Part shown: in pieces, positions 8,878 through 58,206 of the stretch | How positions within the stretch are numbered: the first letter of the stretch is position 1 | How the letters are laid out: each line of letters begins with the position of its first letter | From: a virus | Lineage: Duplodnaviria; Caudoviricetes | IMG/VR virus record: IMGVR_UViG_3300049595_005065 | Direction: 5' to 3' (one strand) | DNA length: 64,000 nucleotides | Position numbers and translations under genes: made by a program | Notes under the pieces: model-generated | The model's database searches: none | The model's input: the letters and a program-made list of their open reading frames with translations, nothing else | What the model was told of the DNA's origin: nothing

Positions 8878-10176
8878 ATGGCACGGATGCAGCGATCGCT
8901 TTTTGCGCAGCTCAACGCACTGGCTGAAGAGATTTCACATAACTCTGTGAAGTCCGCCGCCGAGAAGAAGGCGGAGGGCGGCCCCACCCCGGCTGACCCC
9001 GGCACTTACATGGGTGCTTCCTCGCACCCCACCGCGCACGTTGACAACAACGTGCAGAAGGCAGAGACCGGCGCGCGCGCCTCGGAGTACGAGGCCGACA
9101 TCAAGAAGCAGCAGGGCGCTCTCGCGGTGGACAACACCCCCGAGATGTCTTACGAGGGCCGCCAAGACGAGGTCCAGCAGAACATCGGCACGAACGTCGC
9201 CGCGACTGGCGAAGACCCGGCCGCTGAAAAGGACTTCAAGGGCACGAAGGACGACCCGGGCACCTCGCATCCGGCTAAGGCTAACGACGGCGAGAAGTAC
9301 AGCTCGGTGACGTTCAAGCAGGCTCGCGACGCGGCTGCCGCTCTGGGCAATGACATTCTTGCGGCGCTGGTCAACGCCAGCACCGAGAAGGCGGCTGAGA
9401 TGCCCGCTTTTCTCAAGGACAAGAAGGAAGAGCCCAAGAGCGAGGCCAAAGGCGAGCTGAAGGGCGACCAGCACAAGCTGGATGTCGACAACGACGGCAA
9501 GATTGAGGGCTCTGACCTCAAGGCTCTCCGCGAAGGCAAGGAGGCAGCGTTCAAGGCGGGCTACGAGCTGGCCAAGGAACTTGGCCTCTCGAAGGAAGCC
9601 GCTGAGGCTTCCGTCCGCGAAATCTGCGCCAACACGCTGCGCGAGGCCGATGAGATGGCGGACCTGTTTGTCGGTTTCGTGAGTCAGAAGACCGCCGCCG
9701 CCGATCCGGCTGAAGAGGCCGCCGAGGGCGAGGATCACTCGGCTCCCGGCGACGACGAGTCGGGCGCAAGCCCGGCGGGTGACGCGGCTGGCGCCCCGGC
9801 CGGTCTCGAGGGCATGATGGGCGGCGCGCCCCCGGCCCCGGAAATGGGCGGCGACATGGGTGGCGCTGGCGCTCCGTCGGAAGACGAGGCCGTCCAGGAG
9901 CTGGCCATGGCGCTCGAAGAGCTCGGCATTCCGCCCGAGGCGCTGCTTCAGGCGGTTCAGGGTGGTGCGGGCGCGGCCCCGGCTGGCGCTGGCCCTGAGA
10001 TGCCGCCGGAGATGGCTCCCAAGATGGCTGCCGCAAAGGACTTGAACGCCATTGGCTCCGCCGTGGTCAACTTCAAGCGCGCTGGCAAGTTTCAGGTCAA
10101 GGAAGCCCGCACCAAGCGGTCGCGTCAGCTGCGCGACATCATGAAGCAGCACGTCCTGGAACTCGTCAACCGGTAA
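8878..10176 (+). CDS. scaffold/prohead-core-like protein with an EF-hand-like DxDxDG loop
   Basis: Acidic, Ala/Gly/Pro-rich low complexity, located between protease and capsid; QHKLDVDNDGKIEGSDLKALR; SD AAAGGAG. Confidence 0.6.
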   Translation: MARMQRSLFAQLNALAEEISHNSVKSAAEKKAEGGPTPADPGTYMGASSHPTAHVDNNVQKAETGARASEYEADIKKQQGALAVDNTPEMSYEGRQDEVQQNIGTNVAATGEDPAAEKDFKGTKDDPGTSHPAKANDGEKYSSVTFKQARDAAAALGNDILAALVNASTEKAAEMPAFLKDKKEEPKSEAKGELKGDQHKLDVDNDGKIEGSDLKALREGKEAAFKAGYELAKELGLSKEAAEASVREICANTLREADEMADLFVGFVSQKTAAADPAEEAAEGEDHSAPGDDESGASPAGDAAGAPAGLEGMMGGAPPAPEMGGDMGGAGAPSEDEAVQELAMALEELGIPPEALLQAVQGGAGAAPAGAGPEMPPEMAPKMAAAKDLNAIGSAVVNFKRAGKFQVKEARTKRSRQLRDIMKQHVLELVNR

Positions 10177-10197: not shown

Positions 10198-10629
10198 ATG
10201 TCCAACTGCAGCAACCCGCTTGTCCAGAACATCGTCGACTACATCGGTTACTCCGATGCGGCGATGACCAAGGCCGCGGCGGTTATCCAGGAGCGGGAGG
10301 AGCAGGTTGAGAAGCTTGCCCACCTGATCCCCGAAGCCGTCAAGGTCTGCCTCGAGAACGAGCGGATCGAGCCGCACCAGAAGGAGGCCCTTGCGAAGGC
10401 CCTCGAGAACCCGGTGCGCGCCATGGAACTCGTGATCAAGCTCGCGGCGCATCGCAACGCCGCCGAGATGTCACGCCTGGGCACGCCGGTCGGCGCTTCG
10501 ACGAAGACCGCCGGTTACGACCCGTCGAACAGCCTGACGAGCGGGTATGTGGGCGCTCGTGATGGCAAGCTCAAGGCCTCGGACATCAAGCTGTTCCAGG
10601 GTCTTGGTCTGAACCCGCCCACTGCCTGA
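10198..10629 (+). CDS. small head-module protein
   Basis: 143-aa ORF with GGAGG SD at 10184-10188. Confidence 0.75.
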   Translation: MSNCSNPLVQNIVDYIGYSDAAMTKAAAVIQEREEQVEKLAHLIPEAVKVCLENERIEPHQKEALAKALENPVRAMELVIKLAAHRNAAEMSRLGTPVGASTKTAGYDPSNSLTSGYVGARDGKLKASDIKLFQGLGLNPPTA

Positions 10630-10631
10630 TT

Positions 10632-10674
10632 TCACACGGATCTGTGATTCCTACGAAAAAGACATGGAGGTCTT
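10632..10674 (+). promoter_or_regulatory. tandem CsrA-type hairpins upstream of the 10678 gene (TCACA-CGGATC-TGTGA and AAGAC-ATGGAG-GTCTT)
   Basis: Two 5-bp stems with GGA in the loop; the second carries the SD. Confidence 0.65.
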
Positions 10675-10677
10675 AAC

Positions 10678-11262
10678 ATGGCAACTGCTCCCAATCTGAT
10701 CACCGAGAAGGGGCTTGACGTCAAGAAGGGCTGGTTCCAGATGGCCGCCCTCGACTACGACGCCAAGCTTTCTTCGGCCGTAACTTTTACTGTCCCGCGC
10801 GGTCGCGTGGTGCATGTCGATTCCGCTGGCGACTTCCGTCCTGGTGCTCACAACACCGGTGTTGCGATCTTCCTGCTTAACGGCAGCGGAGAGGCCGACG
10901 TAAGCAACCCTGGCTGGGGTCAGGGTCAGGGCGCTGGCGGCGCGAACGCCACCCAGTCTGCGGCCAACTTCATGCACATTGCCATCGCCCCGACCGGCAA
11001 GATGTCCGGCCTCGTGGCGACGGGTGGATACGAGATTGCGTCGACCGAATTCGACTCGTCTCGCAGCTACGCTCCTGGTGATCTTCTTACCGCGACGGCG
11101 TCGAATTCGAACGCCACGACCGGTGGTCGGATCACGAACGAGTCGGTCGAGCAGTTTGTGACGCCGGTGGTCGGTGTCGTGTCGTCCGGTAAGGCCAAGA
11201 ACCACAACGGGGCCTACGCGCTGTCCTTCTGGACGGTGTGGCTCCCGGGCGAGGCCGCCTGA
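10678..11262 (+). CDS. probable head decoration/capsid cement protein
   Basis: 194-aa beta-rich ORF directly before the major capsid gene, the usual position of lambda gpD-like decoration proteins. Confidence 0.55.
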   Translation: MATAPNLITEKGLDVKKGWFQMAALDYDAKLSSAVTFTVPRGRVVHVDSAGDFRPGAHNTGVAIFLLNGSGEADVSNPGWGQGQGAGGANATQSAANFMHIAIAPTGKMSGLVATGGYEIASTEFDSSRSYAPGDLLTATASNSNATTGGRITNESVEQFVTPVVGVVSSGKAKNHNGAYALSFWTVWLPGEAA

Positions 11263-11282: not shown

Positions 11283-11298
11283 GGAACATGGAGGTTCC
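11283..11298 (+). promoter_or_regulatory. CsrA-type hairpin on the SD of the major capsid gene (GGAAC-ATGGAG-GTTCC)
   Basis: Perfect 5-bp stem with ANGGAN hexaloop; exact (A/U)CANGGANG(U/A) match at 11286-11295; ATG at 11303. Confidence 0.7.
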
Positions 11299-17378: not shown

Positions 17379-17396
17379 TTAGGCATGGAGGCCTGA
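17379..17396 (+). promoter_or_regulatory. CsrA-type hairpin on the SD of the tail sheath gene (TTAGGC-ATGGAG-GCCTGA)
   Basis: 6-bp stem (one wobble), ANGGAN hexaloop, ATG at 17400. Confidence 0.65.
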
Positions 17397-17399
17397 CGC

Positions 17400-31526: not shown

Positions 31527-32339
31527 ATGCCCAACGAAAAAGCACCCGGAATGCCCTCGATCCTGGACGACATTGCGCCGCCTTTCTCGGCCCCCCGCAA
31601 ACCGCAGGGCGTCGGTGAGGACTTCGACGCCACGTTCACCCAGTGGCAGAAGCAGCGCACGCCGGAGAACAACACGCGACTGCTCCAGAGCGTGCAGCCG
31701 GTGATCGACACGGCGCTGACCAGCTACGCCGGGGGCAACACGAGCCCCACGATGCGCAGCCGGGCGCGGCTCATGGCGCTCAGGGCCATGGAGAGCTTCG
31801 ACCCGCAGAAGGGGAACGTCCGCACGCACCTCCTGAGCCAGCTGCAGAGCCTGCGCCGCGCGTCGGCCCAGGCGCAGAACATCATCTCGATTCCCGAGCA
31901 GGTCGGCCTGGACTACCAGCGGCTCACCGAGAGCGAGAACGAGCTGCGTGACCAGCTGGGCCGCGACCCGACCGACGACGAGCTGGCCGACCACACGATG
32001 CTCTCCCCGCGGCGCATCCGGAAGATCCGCTCGTTCTCCCAGCCGGTGGCCGAGGGCTCGACCATCATCGAGACCGGCGATGAGCTGAACGACGGCGGCG
32101 TGGCCAGCACGATCCCCGGCAGCACCCGCGCCGCCGACGCCTGGCTCGATTTCGTGTACGACGATCTGGGCGCGACTGACAAGCTCATCATGGACATGAC
32201 CCTGGGCCGGAACGGGCGGCGGCGAACCAGCACGCAAGAGATCGCCAGGCGTCTTAATATCACGCCCGGCGCCGTGAGTCAGCGCGCCGCCAAGATTCAG
32301 GCCATGCTCGACAAGCGATACACCCAGGGAGGCTTCTGA
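31527..32339 (+). CDS. phage sigma70-family RNA polymerase sigma factor (FliA/SigF-like group 3 layout)
   Basis: Region 2 RAMESFDPQKG, region 3 LRDQLGRDPTDDELA, region 4 HTH STQEIARRLNITPGAVSQ. Confidence 0.85.
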   Translation: MPNEKAPGMPSILDDIAPPFSAPRKPQGVGEDFDATFTQWQKQRTPENNTRLLQSVQPVIDTALTSYAGGNTSPTMRSRARLMALRAMESFDPQKGNVRTHLLSQLQSLRRASAQAQNIISIPEQVGLDYQRLTESENELRDQLGRDPTDDELADHTMLSPRRIRKIRSFSQPVAEGSTIIETGDELNDGGVASTIPGSTRAADAWLDFVYDDLGATDKLIMDMTLGRNGRRRTSTQEIARRLNITPGAVSQRAAKIQAMLDKRYTQGGF

Positions 32340-36558: not shown

Positions 36559-37203
36559 ATGGCCACGGACAAGATTGGAGCAAACGGTTCGGGTGTCCGG
36601 GGGCACGTCACGCTCTGGAGCGTCGACGAAGCCAGCGGCCTGCTCACGCCCCTGCACAGCCAGAAGAACCAGATCGTCCTCTCCTGGGGGCACATCGCGG
36701 CCCGGCAGCTCGGCTTTCGCCCCGGCGCCGGACGCCCCAGCTACCACATCTCGGCGATGTACATCGAGTACGAGAACGTGGGCGACCCGGAGGACCCGGC
36801 GACCGTGGCTTCACTGGGTCGGGACCTCGACCCGGATTACTACTACGGCGAGTTGCTCAGCAGCTCGACCCAGGGCTTCATCCGAGTGCCGCTGCGGACC
36901 GAGCCGGTTCTGGGCGTCTCCACGGTGACCGAGGGCGACTACCCCGGCTACTTCACCGAAGGGACCAACGGCAACCAGCTCACATTCTTCGCCCAGACGT
37001 CGAACGCCGAGGTACAGAACGCTGTGCCGTTTGGCGCCGCCTACAACAGCAAGGTGTACGCCGCAGCGCTGGTGGCCACGCCCGAGTTCTCCGACCACAC
37101 CCAGGACATCGTCTTTGCGCGCACGACCTTCTCGGCCCCCAACCAGGTCACCAAGGAAGCGTCCTCGCAGATCGGCATCACCTGGGACATCGCCTTTGAA
37201 TAG
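36559..37203 (+). CDS. tail collar/fibre-attachment-like protein
   Basis: C-terminal VFARTTF...KEASSQIGITWDIAF pattern. Confidence 0.5.
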   Translation: MATDKIGANGSGVRGHVTLWSVDEASGLLTPLHSQKNQIVLSWGHIAARQLGFRPGAGRPSYHISAMYIEYENVGDPEDPATVASLGRDLDPDYYYGELLSSSTQGFIRVPLRTEPVLGVSTVTEGDYPGYFTEGTNGNQLTFFAQTSNAEVQNAVPFGAAYNSKVYAAALVATPEFSDHTQDIVFARTTFSAPNQVTKEASSQIGITWDIAFE

Positions 37204-37210
37204 TCGTTAA

Positions 37211-37251
37211 TTCACACGGATGTGTGAAAGCCTGGGAGGACACGGATGTCC
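37211..37251 (+). promoter_or_regulatory. tandem CsrA-type hairpins at the 37246 gene (TTCACAC-GGAT-GTGTGAA and GGAC-ACGGAT-GTCC)
   Basis: Both contain ACACGGATGT, an exact consensus match; the second hairpin includes the ATG and part of the SD. Confidence 0.7.
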
Positions 37252-39141
37252 AACAGCAACTGGTTCAACAACATCAAGCATGTCACGCCGGGCGAGCCGG
37301 TCAACGCGGGCGTCGTCTCGCGGCCAGACCAGGCGCTCGTCAGCCGCACGAACTATCTCAAGGAACGGCTCGATGCTGCCGCCCTGAATAGCGCGCTGTT
37401 CGACACCGACGCCACGGTGGCCTCCGACGTCCTGCCCGGCCAGCCGGTCTTCTGGAACGCCCAGACCCAGCAGTACGAGAAGGCGCTGGCCGGTGCTGAG
37501 ATCGAGCCCAACACGCAAGTCCCGGTGACGATCCCGTCGAGCGACGTCCTGGGCATCTGTTATCGCAAGAAGTCCGCCACGCTGGCGGATATCGTGCTCC
37601 GCGGCATCGTGCAGCTGCCCGAGATCACCAACGCCGTTGCGGGCACGGTCACGCCGGGCCGCTACTACCTCTCCGCCACGGAGCCGGGCAAGCTCGTCAA
37701 GCAGAAGCCGCCCGTGTCGGTCAACGTCTGCTTTGTGCAGGGCGTCAAGGAAAACTGCGCCGAAGCGCCCTGGGTCGTCGTGATGCCGCAGGTCCGGGAC
37801 TTCCTCGAGGATCACATCCACTACCGCTTTGAGCTGACGGCCCTGCCTGCGGGCGAGCACGACGGCACGACGGCCGCCGAGGACGGCTTCCACACGATCA
37901 CCGACGCCGACGCGGAGCTGCCGGGCTGGCTTCCCGCCGACCACGCGGTTTTCGAGGGCCGCGCGCCGACCGGCGCTAAGTTTGGCTACAACTTCTCCCA
38001 GCACGAGGCGCTTTCGCTTGTCTGGCCGCCGCAGCCGCTGCAGGCGGTGGCCATGCTCTGGGACAAGGGCATTAACCGCGTTGGCGCCACGGAGATCCCG
38101 CTAGGCGCCGAGGGCCTGTGCGTCGTCAACAAGGACGGCATCTGGTGGATGAGCGACTGCTACGCCAACGTGCCGTGGCCTGCGGATCTCGACACGGCAG
38201 ATCCAGGTTCGGAAAGCTCGCTGCCCGAATGCCCGCTGCCCGAGAGCATGCGGGTCGTCATCGTCTACCTGCGGATGCTCTACGGCAATGACCGCAGCGT
38301 AGTGACCAGCCTCAAGCCCGCAGAGGGCAGCCCGATCACGGTGGTCAACTGCGACGGCCTCCCGGCGAACGCGGACAACGCGCTCACCGGCGACCTGGAG
38401 CTGGGACTGAACCTTGAGCTGCTGGACGATCCCACCGAGGTTAACGGCGGCCGGGTCTACAAGCAGATCACCGAGGACTTCAAGTTTCGCAAGGGCTGGA
38501 TCACCGAGGGCGTGCGCCTGGGCGGCGGCCCGCTGGTGATCAGCGGCACGCGCAGCCGTGTGCTCACTGCCGCCGAAAAGACCGCGCTGGAGCTGCCGTC
38601 CAACGACACGTCGCTGCTCCACCAGGGCCTGGTCACCATCGCCTACGAGGACCAGCTCGTTGAGCGCGAGATCTCCCCGCAAATCATTCGCCTGGCCGAC
38701 ACGGTCGAGCGGCTTTACAAGGACATCCCGTACCTGGGGTTCCCCGAGAACTACAACTCGCTGCTCCGCGTCCGGCTCAACGTGCCCAGTTCAAACCTGG
38801 GCGCGCAGCTGGAGATGAAAGTCCGGGTGCAGCTGTTCGGTCGCACGACCGGCCTACTGCCCGCCATGTCGATGACCTACCGGCGGATCACGCGGCCCAC
38901 GACCGCCGCAGTGCCGCTTCCAACGGCCGACGACGAGTACGAACTGGCGTTCAACGTTCCCGGCACATCGCTTGCCGTGGACACAGTGGTTGAGGTCGAG
39001 AGCGAGGCGTTCTGCGTCAAGGAGGGCGACACGATCCTTGTCACGCTGGCGCGCAGCGGCACCGCGGACAGCTACAACGCTGAAGTCGGCATGCTGCGCA
39101 TGACCGGAGTGGTGACTGTATCGTCCACATGCACGGAATAA
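37246..39141 (+). CDS. proximal tail fibre/baseplate protein
   Basis: 631 aa; RPDQALVSRTNYLKERL N-terminal motif typical of tail-fibre attachment; PGRYYLSATEPGKL. Confidence 0.55.
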   Translation: MSNSNWFNNIKHVTPGEPVNAGVVSRPDQALVSRTNYLKERLDAAALNSALFDTDATVASDVLPGQPVFWNAQTQQYEKALAGAEIEPNTQVPVTIPSSDVLGICYRKKSATLADIVLRGIVQLPEITNAVAGTVTPGRYYLSATEPGKLVKQKPPVSVNVCFVQGVKENCAEAPWVVVMPQVRDFLEDHIHYRFELTALPAGEHDGTTAAEDGFHTITDADAELPGWLPADHAVFEGRAPTGAKFGYNFSQHEALSLVWPPQPLQAVAMLWDKGINRVGATEIPLGAEGLCVVNKDGIWWMSDCYANVPWPADLDTADPGSESSLPECPLPESMRVVIVYLRMLYGNDRSVVTSLKPAEGSPITVVNCDGLPANADNALTGDLELGLNLELLDDPTEVNGGRVYKQITEDFKFRKGWITEGVRLGGGPLVISGTRSRVLTAAEKTALELPSNDTSLLHQGLVTIAYEDQLVEREISPQIIRLADTVERLYKDIPYLGFPENYNSLLRVRLNVPSSNLGAQLEMKVRVQLFGRTTGLLPAMSMTYRRITRPTTAAVPLPTADDEYELAFNVPGTSLAVDTVVEVESEAFCVKEGDTILVTLARSGTADSYNAEVGMLRMTGVVTVSSTCTE

Positions 39142-54647: not shown

Positions 54648-54678
54648 CGCGCTTGTGTGAAATGCCAGGGAGGGCAGT

Positions 54679-56878: not shown

Positions 56879-57353
56879 GGAAACCTCCGAGAACCAGGAA
56901 CTAACCGTAACGCTGGCCAGTCTAGCGCCGATTCTGAAGCTCGACAAGTTGCAACTGCGCTCGGCGGCCCGCGTTTACAACTACGCCGACGAAAGCGCCG
57001 CCCTGCCCAGATTCGTCACCCTGCGGTTGCTTCTGACCGACCTCTTGGAGCGGCTGGCATTTTTGAAACCCAGCCAGCGCCAGGCGATTCTGGAACGATA
57101 CGATCAGGACATCGACGACAACCAAGACCAGTGGGAGACCCTGGCTTTCGCAGACGGCAACTGGGTCACCTGGACCGGCCATTACGGCTGGCTGGACTTA
57201 ACAACCGGCGACGTCGTGACCGCTCTCCCCGACGCTCCGGTGGAGACCATTGGGTACAATCTGGTGACACTGCATCACCGGGCGATCGCCCAGCTCAGGA
57301 AAAGGATTTCCGATGGCCAAGAACATTCTGCAGGAAGCGTGGACCAGCCGTGA
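56877..57353 (+). CDS. hypothetical protein
   Basis: Start at ATG 56877 or 56865; overlaps the next gene. Confidence 0.6.
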   Translation: METSENQELTVTLASLAPILKLDKLQLRSAARVYNYADESAALPRFVTLRLLLTDLLERLAFLKPSQRQAILERYDQDIDDNQDQWETLAFADGNWVTWTGHYGWLDLTTGDVVTALPDAPVETIGYNLVTLHHRAIAQLRKRISDGQEHSAGSVDQP

Positions 57354-57987
57354 AACTTTTGCGACGGTCCTCCTGACTCTCTTCCTGGACCGCTTCGGCA
57401 TGGAGGCCCTCGACTGGGACCCGGCCACCGTCACGCTGGAGATAGAGGAAGAGTTCGACGTCGATCTGCCGCGGCTGAGCCTCGACAAGCTCATGGTGGC
57501 AATTCAAATCCTGACCACAGACCGTTTTCACAAGTCGCTCCCCGACTTCGTGGAATTCTGCAATGTACTAGGCGGCGACACCTACAGCCCCCAGACGTTT
57601 GACCCGGCCGACGCCGAGGAGGTCGCCTGGGGGATCACCGAGAGCATGCTCATCGCCCCACCGGACGACGCGGACACCGAGCCGTTCAGCGACGAGATCC
57701 GGGCCTACATCGGCGCCGTGCTCGACCAGGAAGGGATTATCAACGCCCCTGACGTCCTGCGGATCGCCCTGCGCCGCGCGCGCATCTCGCCGTCAATCGA
57801 GGACTTCTCGGACGACCCGGAGATGTTCAGCGCAGTTTACGGGCTCGAGTCCGCGAAGACCGACGAGATAAATCAAACTATCGTCACGAAGACGCAGATT
57901 CTGGCCGCTCAGCTAGCGGCGCTGCAGCTTCAGAACGGAAACACTCAATCAGTCGCCAAGATGCTGCATGACTCTGTGCAGCGCTAG
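57313..57987 (+). CDS. acidic helical hypothetical protein
   Basis: 224 aa; SD AGGA sits in a GGAAA/TTTCC hairpin. Confidence 0.7.
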   Translation: MAKNILQEAWTSRETFATVLLTLFLDRFGMEALDWDPATVTLEIEEEFDVDLPRLSLDKLMVAIQILTTDRFHKSLPDFVEFCNVLGGDTYSPQTFDPADAEEVAWGITESMLIAPPDDADTEPFSDEIRAYIGAVLDQEGIINAPDVLRIALRRARISPSIEDFSDDPEMFSAVYGLESAKTDEINQTIVTKTQILAAQLAALQLQNGNTQSVAKMLHDSVQR

Positions 57988-58002
57988 GCAGAAGGGAACA
58001 TT

Positions 58003-58206
58003 ATGCTCGTCCTTTCTCGCAAGAGGAACGAGAAACTACTCATTGGCCACGACGTGAAGATTACGGTCGTCGAGATATTGCCCGATCGGGTTCGCTTAGG
58101 AATCGAAGCGCCAGAGCAGGTGAGCGTGGTGCGCGCCGAACTGGCCAAGAACTGGCACGGCCGCAAGAAGGCCGGAGAAAATGGGGTGGAACGACCGCCT
58201 GCCTGA
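58003..58206 (+). CDS. csrA: carbon storage regulator CsrA/RsmA homolog
   Basis: MLVLSRKRNEKLLIGHDVKITVVEILPDRVRLGIEAPEQVSVVRAEL matches the CsrA pattern ML(I/V)L(T/S)R..E...IG..V.I.V......VR(I/L)G(I/V).AP..V.V.R.E, including the RNA-binding Arg44. Confidence 0.93.
   Translation: MLVLSRKRNEKLLIGHDVKITVVEILPDRVRLGIEAPEQVSVVRAELAKNWHGRKKAGENGVERPPA

Follow-up and report, generated by a model that had tools for sequence, protein, structure and literature searches.

The leader of the gene that starts at position 37246 in the phage sequence analysed here raises the question of whether a virus that encodes its own CsrA protein uses it on its own late genes, and whether this would need both faces of the CsrA dimer. 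An earlier note on this DNA had read the leader as a pair of CsrA sites spaced for dimer bridging, with the downstream site hiding the start codon, and had pointed to a second such pair before the gene at 10678. We followed up this reading across the whole stretch of 64,000 nt (hereafter the window) and in related phages. The window is a 63% G+C block in which nearly every gene lies on the + strand, and it derives from an uncultured ~200-kb phage family of lake-water metagenomes, the longest contig of which is 208 kb. A megablast search against 50,697 phage records gave no match to the window, and PHROGs and Pfam searches with the flanking virion genes returned nothing except a weak sheath hit and a sigma factor. 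A sigma-70 family gene (31527-32339; Sigma70_r3, E = 8.5e-10) is found among the tail/baseplate-region genes.

At the first leader (site A), two exact copies of ACACGGATGT were found at 37214-37223 and 37240-37249, with 26 nt from GGA to GGA, and both lie inside the intergenic spacer of ~42-46 nt which separates the TAG stop (37201-37203) of the preceding gene from the ATG at 37246. This preceding gene (36559-37203, + strand, taken from the ORF list) encodes a 214-aa product with 371 homologues, none of which carries a Pfam family. The first copy of ACACGGATGT belongs to hairpin 1 (TTCACAC-GGAT-GTGTGAA, 37211-37228, + strand), which begins 8 nt after the stop and has 7 perfect pairs with the GGA in its loop; this GGA lies 28 nt before the ATG and is therefore too far away for a Shine-Dalgarno (SD) role. 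The SD read from the sequence is GGGAGG (37234-37239, + strand), 6 nt before the ATG. The second copy belongs to hairpin 2 (GGACA-CGGA-TGTCC, 37238-37251, + strand), which has a 5-bp stem and contains the start codon (37246-37248). In the ViennaRNA fold its stem takes in two bases of the start codon (UG) together with the final two G of the SD, and an alternative with a 4-bp stem and a 6-nt loop is equally possible. The layout described in the earlier note, with two motif copies 26 nt apart, the first in a perfect 7-bp stem and not an SD and the second in a hairpin containing the ATG, was borne out by both the sequence and the fold. The leader was identical in contigs from four lake runs, which are therefore uninformative on microdiversity, and no RNA run was among those that contain the stretch. 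In two independent lake-water runs, Logan contigs stop within hairpin 1 (37219 and 37230); this could be an assembly break at a loop which is variable or inverted in the population, or coincidence.

The leader of the gene at 10678 (site B) also carries two hairpins, within a spacer of 48 nt. The upstream, non-SD hairpin (TCACA-CGGATC-TGTGA, 10632-10647, + strand) starts 3 nt after the TGA stop (10627-10629) of the gene at 10198-10629, and the second hairpin (AAGAC-ATGGAG-GTCTT, 10659-10674, + strand) holds the SD GGAGG (10666-10670) in its loop and 3' arm. The distance from GGA to GGA is 28 nt, as had been proposed for this pair, and the upstream member is indeed not an SD. Small hairpins that enclose the SD and have GGA or GGAG in the loop were also seen in the leaders at 11283-11298 (GGAAC-ATGGAG-GTTCC), 17383-17398 (AGGC-ATGGAG-GCCT), 54661-54676 (TGCC-AGGGAG-GGCA) and 57300-57313 (GGAAA-AGGA-TTTCC). 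These four leaders are a wider "regulon" pattern, and a second upstream hairpin is absent from all of them. In the complete relative G006, a genome-wide search for further non-SD consensus sites in leaders gave only the site A orthologue and one doubtful, probably coding, case, so that the paired layout is confined to two leaders.

We compared these hairpins with the known CsrA consensus. In all four hairpins of sites A and B the GGA is single-stranded in the loop of a short hairpin, as judged from minimum-free-energy folds and the sequence. Both site A 10-mers are an exact fit to (A/U)CANGGANG(U/A) and to ACA-N-GGA-U-GU. Against the flanks of ACA-N-GGA-N-GU, the SD hairpin of site B (B2) reads ACATGGAGGT and the upstream hairpin of site B (B1) reads ACACGGATCT, with one mismatch. 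The consensus obtained by SELEX is RUACARGGAUGU, with ACA and GGA invariant in the ligands (PMC7652899). On the + strand of the window ACACGGATGT was seen 2 times against 0.07 expected, a count of 2 being reached in 1 of 300 dinucleotide shuffles, and TCACACGGA was seen 3 times against 0.4 expected, with every copy in a leader. The 10-nt consensus had 13 matches in the window against 6.7 in shuffles; 11 of these were on the + strand, including 6 in leaders. GGA-loop hairpins with a stem of ≥ 5 bp showed no window-wide enrichment (47 on the + strand vs 48 on the - strand), and the stability of the folded leaders was unremarkable (z = -1.1 and +0.9). The signal is one of exact motif, position and conservation, not of folding energy.

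Other classes of element were also searched for. We found no terminator-like site or U-tract at site A or site B, the real terminator-like hairpins of the window having long G+C stems, no sigma-70-like promoter pattern at either site, and no Rfam family reaching threshold in the window. Upstream of gene 17400, a TTGACG...TATACT candidate promoter was dropped, as its spacer is only 11 nt. A sponge RNA of the CsrB/RsmZ type was rejected, there being no Rfam match and only two hairpins, inside an mRNA leader. A CRP/FNR-type DNA operator was likewise rejected: the CRP consensus has the half-site order TGTGA-N6-TCACA, whereas the upstream sites read TCACA-N6-TGTGA on both strands, the opposite order.

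The candidate regulated genes lie in the virion regions of the genome. The gene behind site A (37246-39141, + strand) encodes a 631-aa protein of the tail/virion region with no Pfam or PHROG match. This protein is conserved over its full length, with 52-75% identity in > 100 relatives, and is not a hypervariable fibre tip. In its structural model (pLDDT 70.8) the C-terminus forms a beta-sandwich similar to CBM6 carbohydrate-binding modules, the TM score on the target being 0.6-0.7. The protein is one of the tail region, and the label "fibre" is not established. The gene behind site B (10678-11262, + strand) encodes a 194-aa protein with no direct Pfam match; its neighbours in the ESM Atlas score 0.97 and carry Phage_cement families, so that it is probably a capsid cement or decoration protein, an assignment to be taken as a lead only.

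The candidate trans-acting factor is a phage csrA gene (58003-58206, + strand) encoding 67 aa (Pfam CsrA, E = 6e-21). Its product aligns without gaps to E. coli CsrA (1y00) and keeps L2, L4, R6, K7, V40, V42 and R44; with these RNA-binding residues kept, the protein looks competent. We found csrA in 9 of 10 related phage records, including 7 of the 7 which are ≥ 90% complete, and it is therefore a core gene of the ~200-kb phage family. In the leader of csrA itself (57986-58020), base pairing is predicted between the SD AGAAGGGA and codons 4-6 (UCCUUUCU), as it is in the relative L031; in the distant relative L033 the SD and start codon of csrA lie in an AUGAUGG-AG-CCAUCAU hairpin with GGA at the loop. 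These structures may reflect autoregulation.

To follow the sites through the family, the leader was read in ~35 relatives, which were reached via the neighbouring gene, exact protein look-ups and a DNA pattern. A metagenome scan contributed only 2 new loci. When viral contigs were scanned for exact patterns, site A gained a single new lineage and site B gained none. The start-proximal site A, GGAGGACA-N-GGATGTCC, was kept down to 48% identity of the neighbouring protein, with no losses in the ~35 sequences. Its sole variable position is N, which is C, A, G or absent; it is precisely here that A(N)GGA itself is degenerate. Every 37246 orthologue read has TCC as its second codon. At site B, AGACA(U/C)GGAGGUCU was invariant in 13 relatives except for the U/C at N. 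Such constancy is unusual for the nucleotides that separate an SD from its AUG. Because these letters are held, and because they match the consensus known from SELEX and from the loop of the hcnA leader, the start-proximal hairpins appear to be good candidate CsrA operators, with strong indirect support.

For the upstream hairpins, conservation in homologous leaders had been proposed as the check on the CsrA reading, and the outcome was mixed. When gain and loss were mapped on a tree of the neighbouring protein, the upstream GGA of site A was ancestral to a well-supported near clade of 14 tips and was kept in 9 of these; the more distant clades have a short spacer without the upstream hairpin. 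In 7 lineages the two GGA motifs are exactly 26 nt apart; in 2 basal lineages the distance is 18 nt. Where the GGA was kept, the TTCAC stem carried the loops GGAU, GGAC, UGGAUU or AUGGAC, and the two basal tips had ACGGA(C/A) on a GGC stem that is weak. With GGC-ACGGAC-GCU, site A thus adds a fourth type of stem with an upstream GGA to the three described below for site B. Among the 14 lineages the upstream GGA was lost at least 4 times, with two of the losses occurring by inversion of the loop: in L044/L045 (two independent assemblies) the loop is reverse-complemented to UUCC, and in L049/L050 to CUUCCC/UUCCUG, the stem being intact in each case. The stem is also intact in L046, which has the loop AGAC, while L047 has a different G+C hairpin in this place. 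The flipped loop is complementary to the SD 9-10 nt downstream, so these lineages can be regarded as having a candidate cis alternative that would act via SD pairing.

At site B the upstream GGA was kept in ~7 of 9 lineages and was absent in the distant clade. It lies 28-29 nt upstream on three types of stem, TCACA-CGGAUC-UGUGA, GAGGAAC-AGGAU-GUUCCUC and CGGAGAAC-AGGAC-GUUCUCCG; the GAGGAAC and CGGAGAAC stems resemble each other and may be homologous. A GGAU at 26-27 nt, but with no clear stem, was seen in two further lineages. As for losses, the GAGGAAC stem is retained in L070 but its loop is AAAAC, the motif in L002 is GGU, and no upstream element is present in two lineages. Taking the lineages together, the upstream GGA is on the sense (transcribed) strand in ~13 against 3, which argues for reading of the loop at the RNA level. 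With different stems, the same distance and this strand bias, a GGA in the upstream loop is clearly favoured. It is nevertheless dispensable, and the stem is under stronger constraint than the GGA, because stems persist after the GGA has been flipped or lost (L044/L045, L049/L050, L046, L070 and L002). We therefore take the paired layout to be real and partly conserved, in that the upstream site is ancestral in the near clade but was lost repeatedly there and is missing from the distant one. Bridging by a dimer is plausible on this comparison of leaders but would be dispensable and not required.

What, then, holds the stems constant? The arms TCAC...GTG.AA were invariant in 11 aligned leaders, and covariation in the first helix was limited to one pair with double changes (A-U, G.U, G-C), a level reached in 68 of 500 shuffles and not significant. 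In the window TCACA-N6-TGTGA occurs in 3 copies against 0.03 expected, a count reached in 0 of 300 shuffles, and the complete genome of G006 contains 5 copies, where a reversed control pattern gave none. The third copy in the window (TTTCACA-TAACTC-TGTGAAG, 8933-8952, + strand) lies inside a CDS (8878-10176) and contains no GGA; it is built from synonymous TCA/GTG codons found only in near-clade relatives. Since the arms recur with unrelated centres, including inside this CDS without GGA, the upstream hairpins fall into a palindrome family, and their arms read as a clade-specific repeat which is independent of the CsrA motif. In loci L072-L082, an intercistronic TCACACGGTTGTGTGA (G006:C1:35765-35780) is present on the non-transcribed strand, with the mRNA carrying the flipped centre; this is another copy of the cassette, flipped and mutated.

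The main rival to the CsrA reading of the upstream hairpins, possible though on balance rather unlikely, is that they are primarily such TTTCACA-N6-TGTGAA(A) palindromes, which do not need CsrA, with the GGA secondary or inherited and with only the start-proximal hairpin of CsrA type. As intercistronic RNA hairpins they could set the stability or processing of mRNA segments, or they could be DNA sites for a dimeric protein. The excess of copies in the window and in G006, the copy inside a CDS, and arms which stay invariant while the loops vary, flip or lose the GGA all fit this explanation, as does an extra GUCACAC-GCCA-GUGUGAC hairpin upstream of GAGGAAC-AAAAC-GUUCCUC in the site B leader of a 78% relative (L070:215-300), which has TCACAC/GTGTGA arms and no GGA. 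It accounts poorly for the bias of the leader copies towards a sense-strand GGA, which is beyond what chance or a strand-blind DNA site would give, and for the basal relatives and site B relatives, in which GGA loops sit on quite different stems at equal distance. It should also be noted that no known operator fits, the CRP half-site order being opposite, and that the hairpins lack a U-tract and so are not intrinsic terminators. Whatever their function, the membership of the non-SD hairpin stems in an independent repeat family means that these hairpins are not a clean internal control, and the earlier claim that the non-SD GGAT sites are the best internal control for the regulon did not hold.

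The reading which we prefer, and which falls just short of what we would call probable, is that the leaders are translational operators of the CsrA family, each with a start-proximal core site and an accessory upstream GGA hairpin clamped by one dimer, and that the actor is probably the phage CsrA. At site A the core hairpin would bury the start codon together with part of the SD, and at site B it would bury the SD; in both, A(N)GGA is displayed in the loop, and the 30S subunit would be blocked once CsrA is bound there. The accessory hairpin, also with a GGA loop, lies just behind the preceding stop codon and 26-28 nt upstream; it would allow both faces of the dimer to clamp the leader and would raise occupancy in the manner described for glgC and hcnA. 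The stem of the accessory hairpin probably serves another function, independent of CsrA. We infer the binding, the bridging, the direction of repression and the identity of the CsrA that acts (phage or host) from sequence comparison. The earlier reading of paired CsrA sites is partly supported in this way: the csrA gene, the fit to the consensus and the conservation of the core sites speak for it, and the restriction of the upstream hairpin to the near clade, the losses of GGA and the wide range of permitted spacings speak against it.

Control purely in cis would dispense with a protein that reads the GGA. Here the start-proximal hairpins would throttle initiation and the upstream hairpin would insulate the leader from ribosomes that terminate on the gene before it, which agrees with the pairing of part of the SD or the AUG in both start-proximal hairpins, with upstream hairpins that start 3-8 nt after the stop codon, and with stems that outlive the loss of GGA. 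We consider this improbable, because structure alone cannot explain an invariant ACA-N-GGA-UGU which varies only at N across 48-85% protein identity: the stems could covary freely and yet are fixed in sequence. It also leaves unexplained the GGA on independent stems and the presence of csrA as a core gene of the family.

In a further alternative, host CsrA/RsmA reads the sites, and the phage CsrA acts on host mRNAs or titrates host Csr sRNAs, in line with the literature on CsrA of mobile elements. Published accounts have phage CsrA manipulating processes of the host (PMC11879866, PMC7366521), and the motifs in our leaders match the consensus of both E. coli and Pseudomonas (PMC7652899, PMC4005645). 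However, a chromosomal csrA is lacking in some hosts of phages that carry the gene (PMC7366521), and csrA and the hairpins co-occur throughout the family; we judge this alternative to be quite unlikely. That two GGA hairpins fell into one short spacer by chance is so improbable that it can be set aside, since, common as GGA-loop hairpins are on both strands and even with ~1.4 in 1000 random 46-mers holding some 10-mer direct repeat, what is repeated here is the CsrA consensus itself, relatives conserve it, and a second leader shows the same arrangement.

Returning to the preferred reading of a CsrA-type operator with an optional upstream site, the leader at 37204-37265 is a short defined RNA with one invariant and one optional consensus site, in a phage whose csrA is a core gene, and it offers a direct and cheap test of whether a viral CsrA acts on the virus's own late proteins as well as a test of dual-site clamping. 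The natural variants with GGA, a flipped UCC, AGAC or no hairpin are a ready-made mutant series. A more speculative extension, to which we give little credence at present, is that the upstream hairpin is an evolvable toggle. The palindromic cassette TTTCACA-N6-TGTGAA would flip its loop by small inversion between a CsrA-consensus GGA and an SD-pairing UCC, and sister phages would thereby switch one virion-gene leader between repression in trans, by a clamp of their own CsrA dimer, and repression in cis, by anti-SD pairing, within what would be the first self-contained viral Csr regulon on late genes.

Inversions of this type have a known counterpart. In chloroplast non-coding DNA, hairpin loops that lie between short inverted repeats are well known to undergo small inversions. 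As in chloroplasts, the phage loop is turned into its reverse complement on an unaltered stem, so that GGA(U/A) gives UUCC, CUUCCC or UUCCUG; unlike in chloroplasts, the flip in the phage removes a candidate protein-binding motif and creates a complement to the SD just downstream.

Among characterised CsrA targets, the leaders may be compared with glgC of E. coli and hcnA of Pseudomonas. Dual-site bridging on glgC allows 10-63 nt between sites with an optimum of > 18 nt, and full repression needs both faces of the dimer (Mercante et al. 2009, as summarised in PMC7652899). The phage leaders resemble glgC in having an upstream hairpin site and a site which overlaps the SD or start, 26-28 nt apart and within this range. 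They differ in that the phage family repeatedly loses or inverts the upstream site while the core site stays, which implies that dual-site binding is not essential in this family. The claim that the sites are spaced for dimer bridging fits as to the distance, but this is weak evidence, since the range discriminates little and nearly any GGA close by would fall within it, and the upstream site is dispensable. In the 5' leader of hcnA (Pseudomonas fluorescens/protegens; PDB 2jpp), RsmE binds an SD-proximal ACGGAU loop, and a single RsmE dimer begins by occupying GGA sites #3 and #5 of the leader and represses translation (PMC4005645). The phage sites read C-ACGGAU-G, with identical loop letters. 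Unlike in hcnA, the candidate regulator is encoded by the virus and its targets would be the virus's own virion-region genes; phage site A covers the AUG itself, and hairpin 1 has a longer stem of 7 bp and can close to a 4-nt loop. SELEX ligands typically have ≤ 4 contiguous pairs and mostly 6-nt loops (PMC7652899), and hairpin 1 is more stable than a typical ligand of this kind, a point against the CsrA reading.

The present family may also be set beside other phages that carry csrA, all of which have a small CsrA-family gene in the phage genome. Such genes are known in ~1% of phages, and the literature assumes that they act on the host. A published list contains 30 phages with CsrA homologues (PMC7366521). 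Knock-down of the CsrA homologue gp28 of phage PTXU04 leads to smaller plaques (PMC11879866), and in Burkholderia phage CSP3 the csrA gene orf23 lies next to head genes and the capsid gene (PMC10269572). In the literature we found no report of a phage CsrA acting on, or with named targets among, the phage's own genes. Unlike PTXU04, CSP3 and the listed phages, for which the publications suggest a host-directed action without naming targets in the phage, the phage family described here has conserved candidate cis sites on its own late genes.
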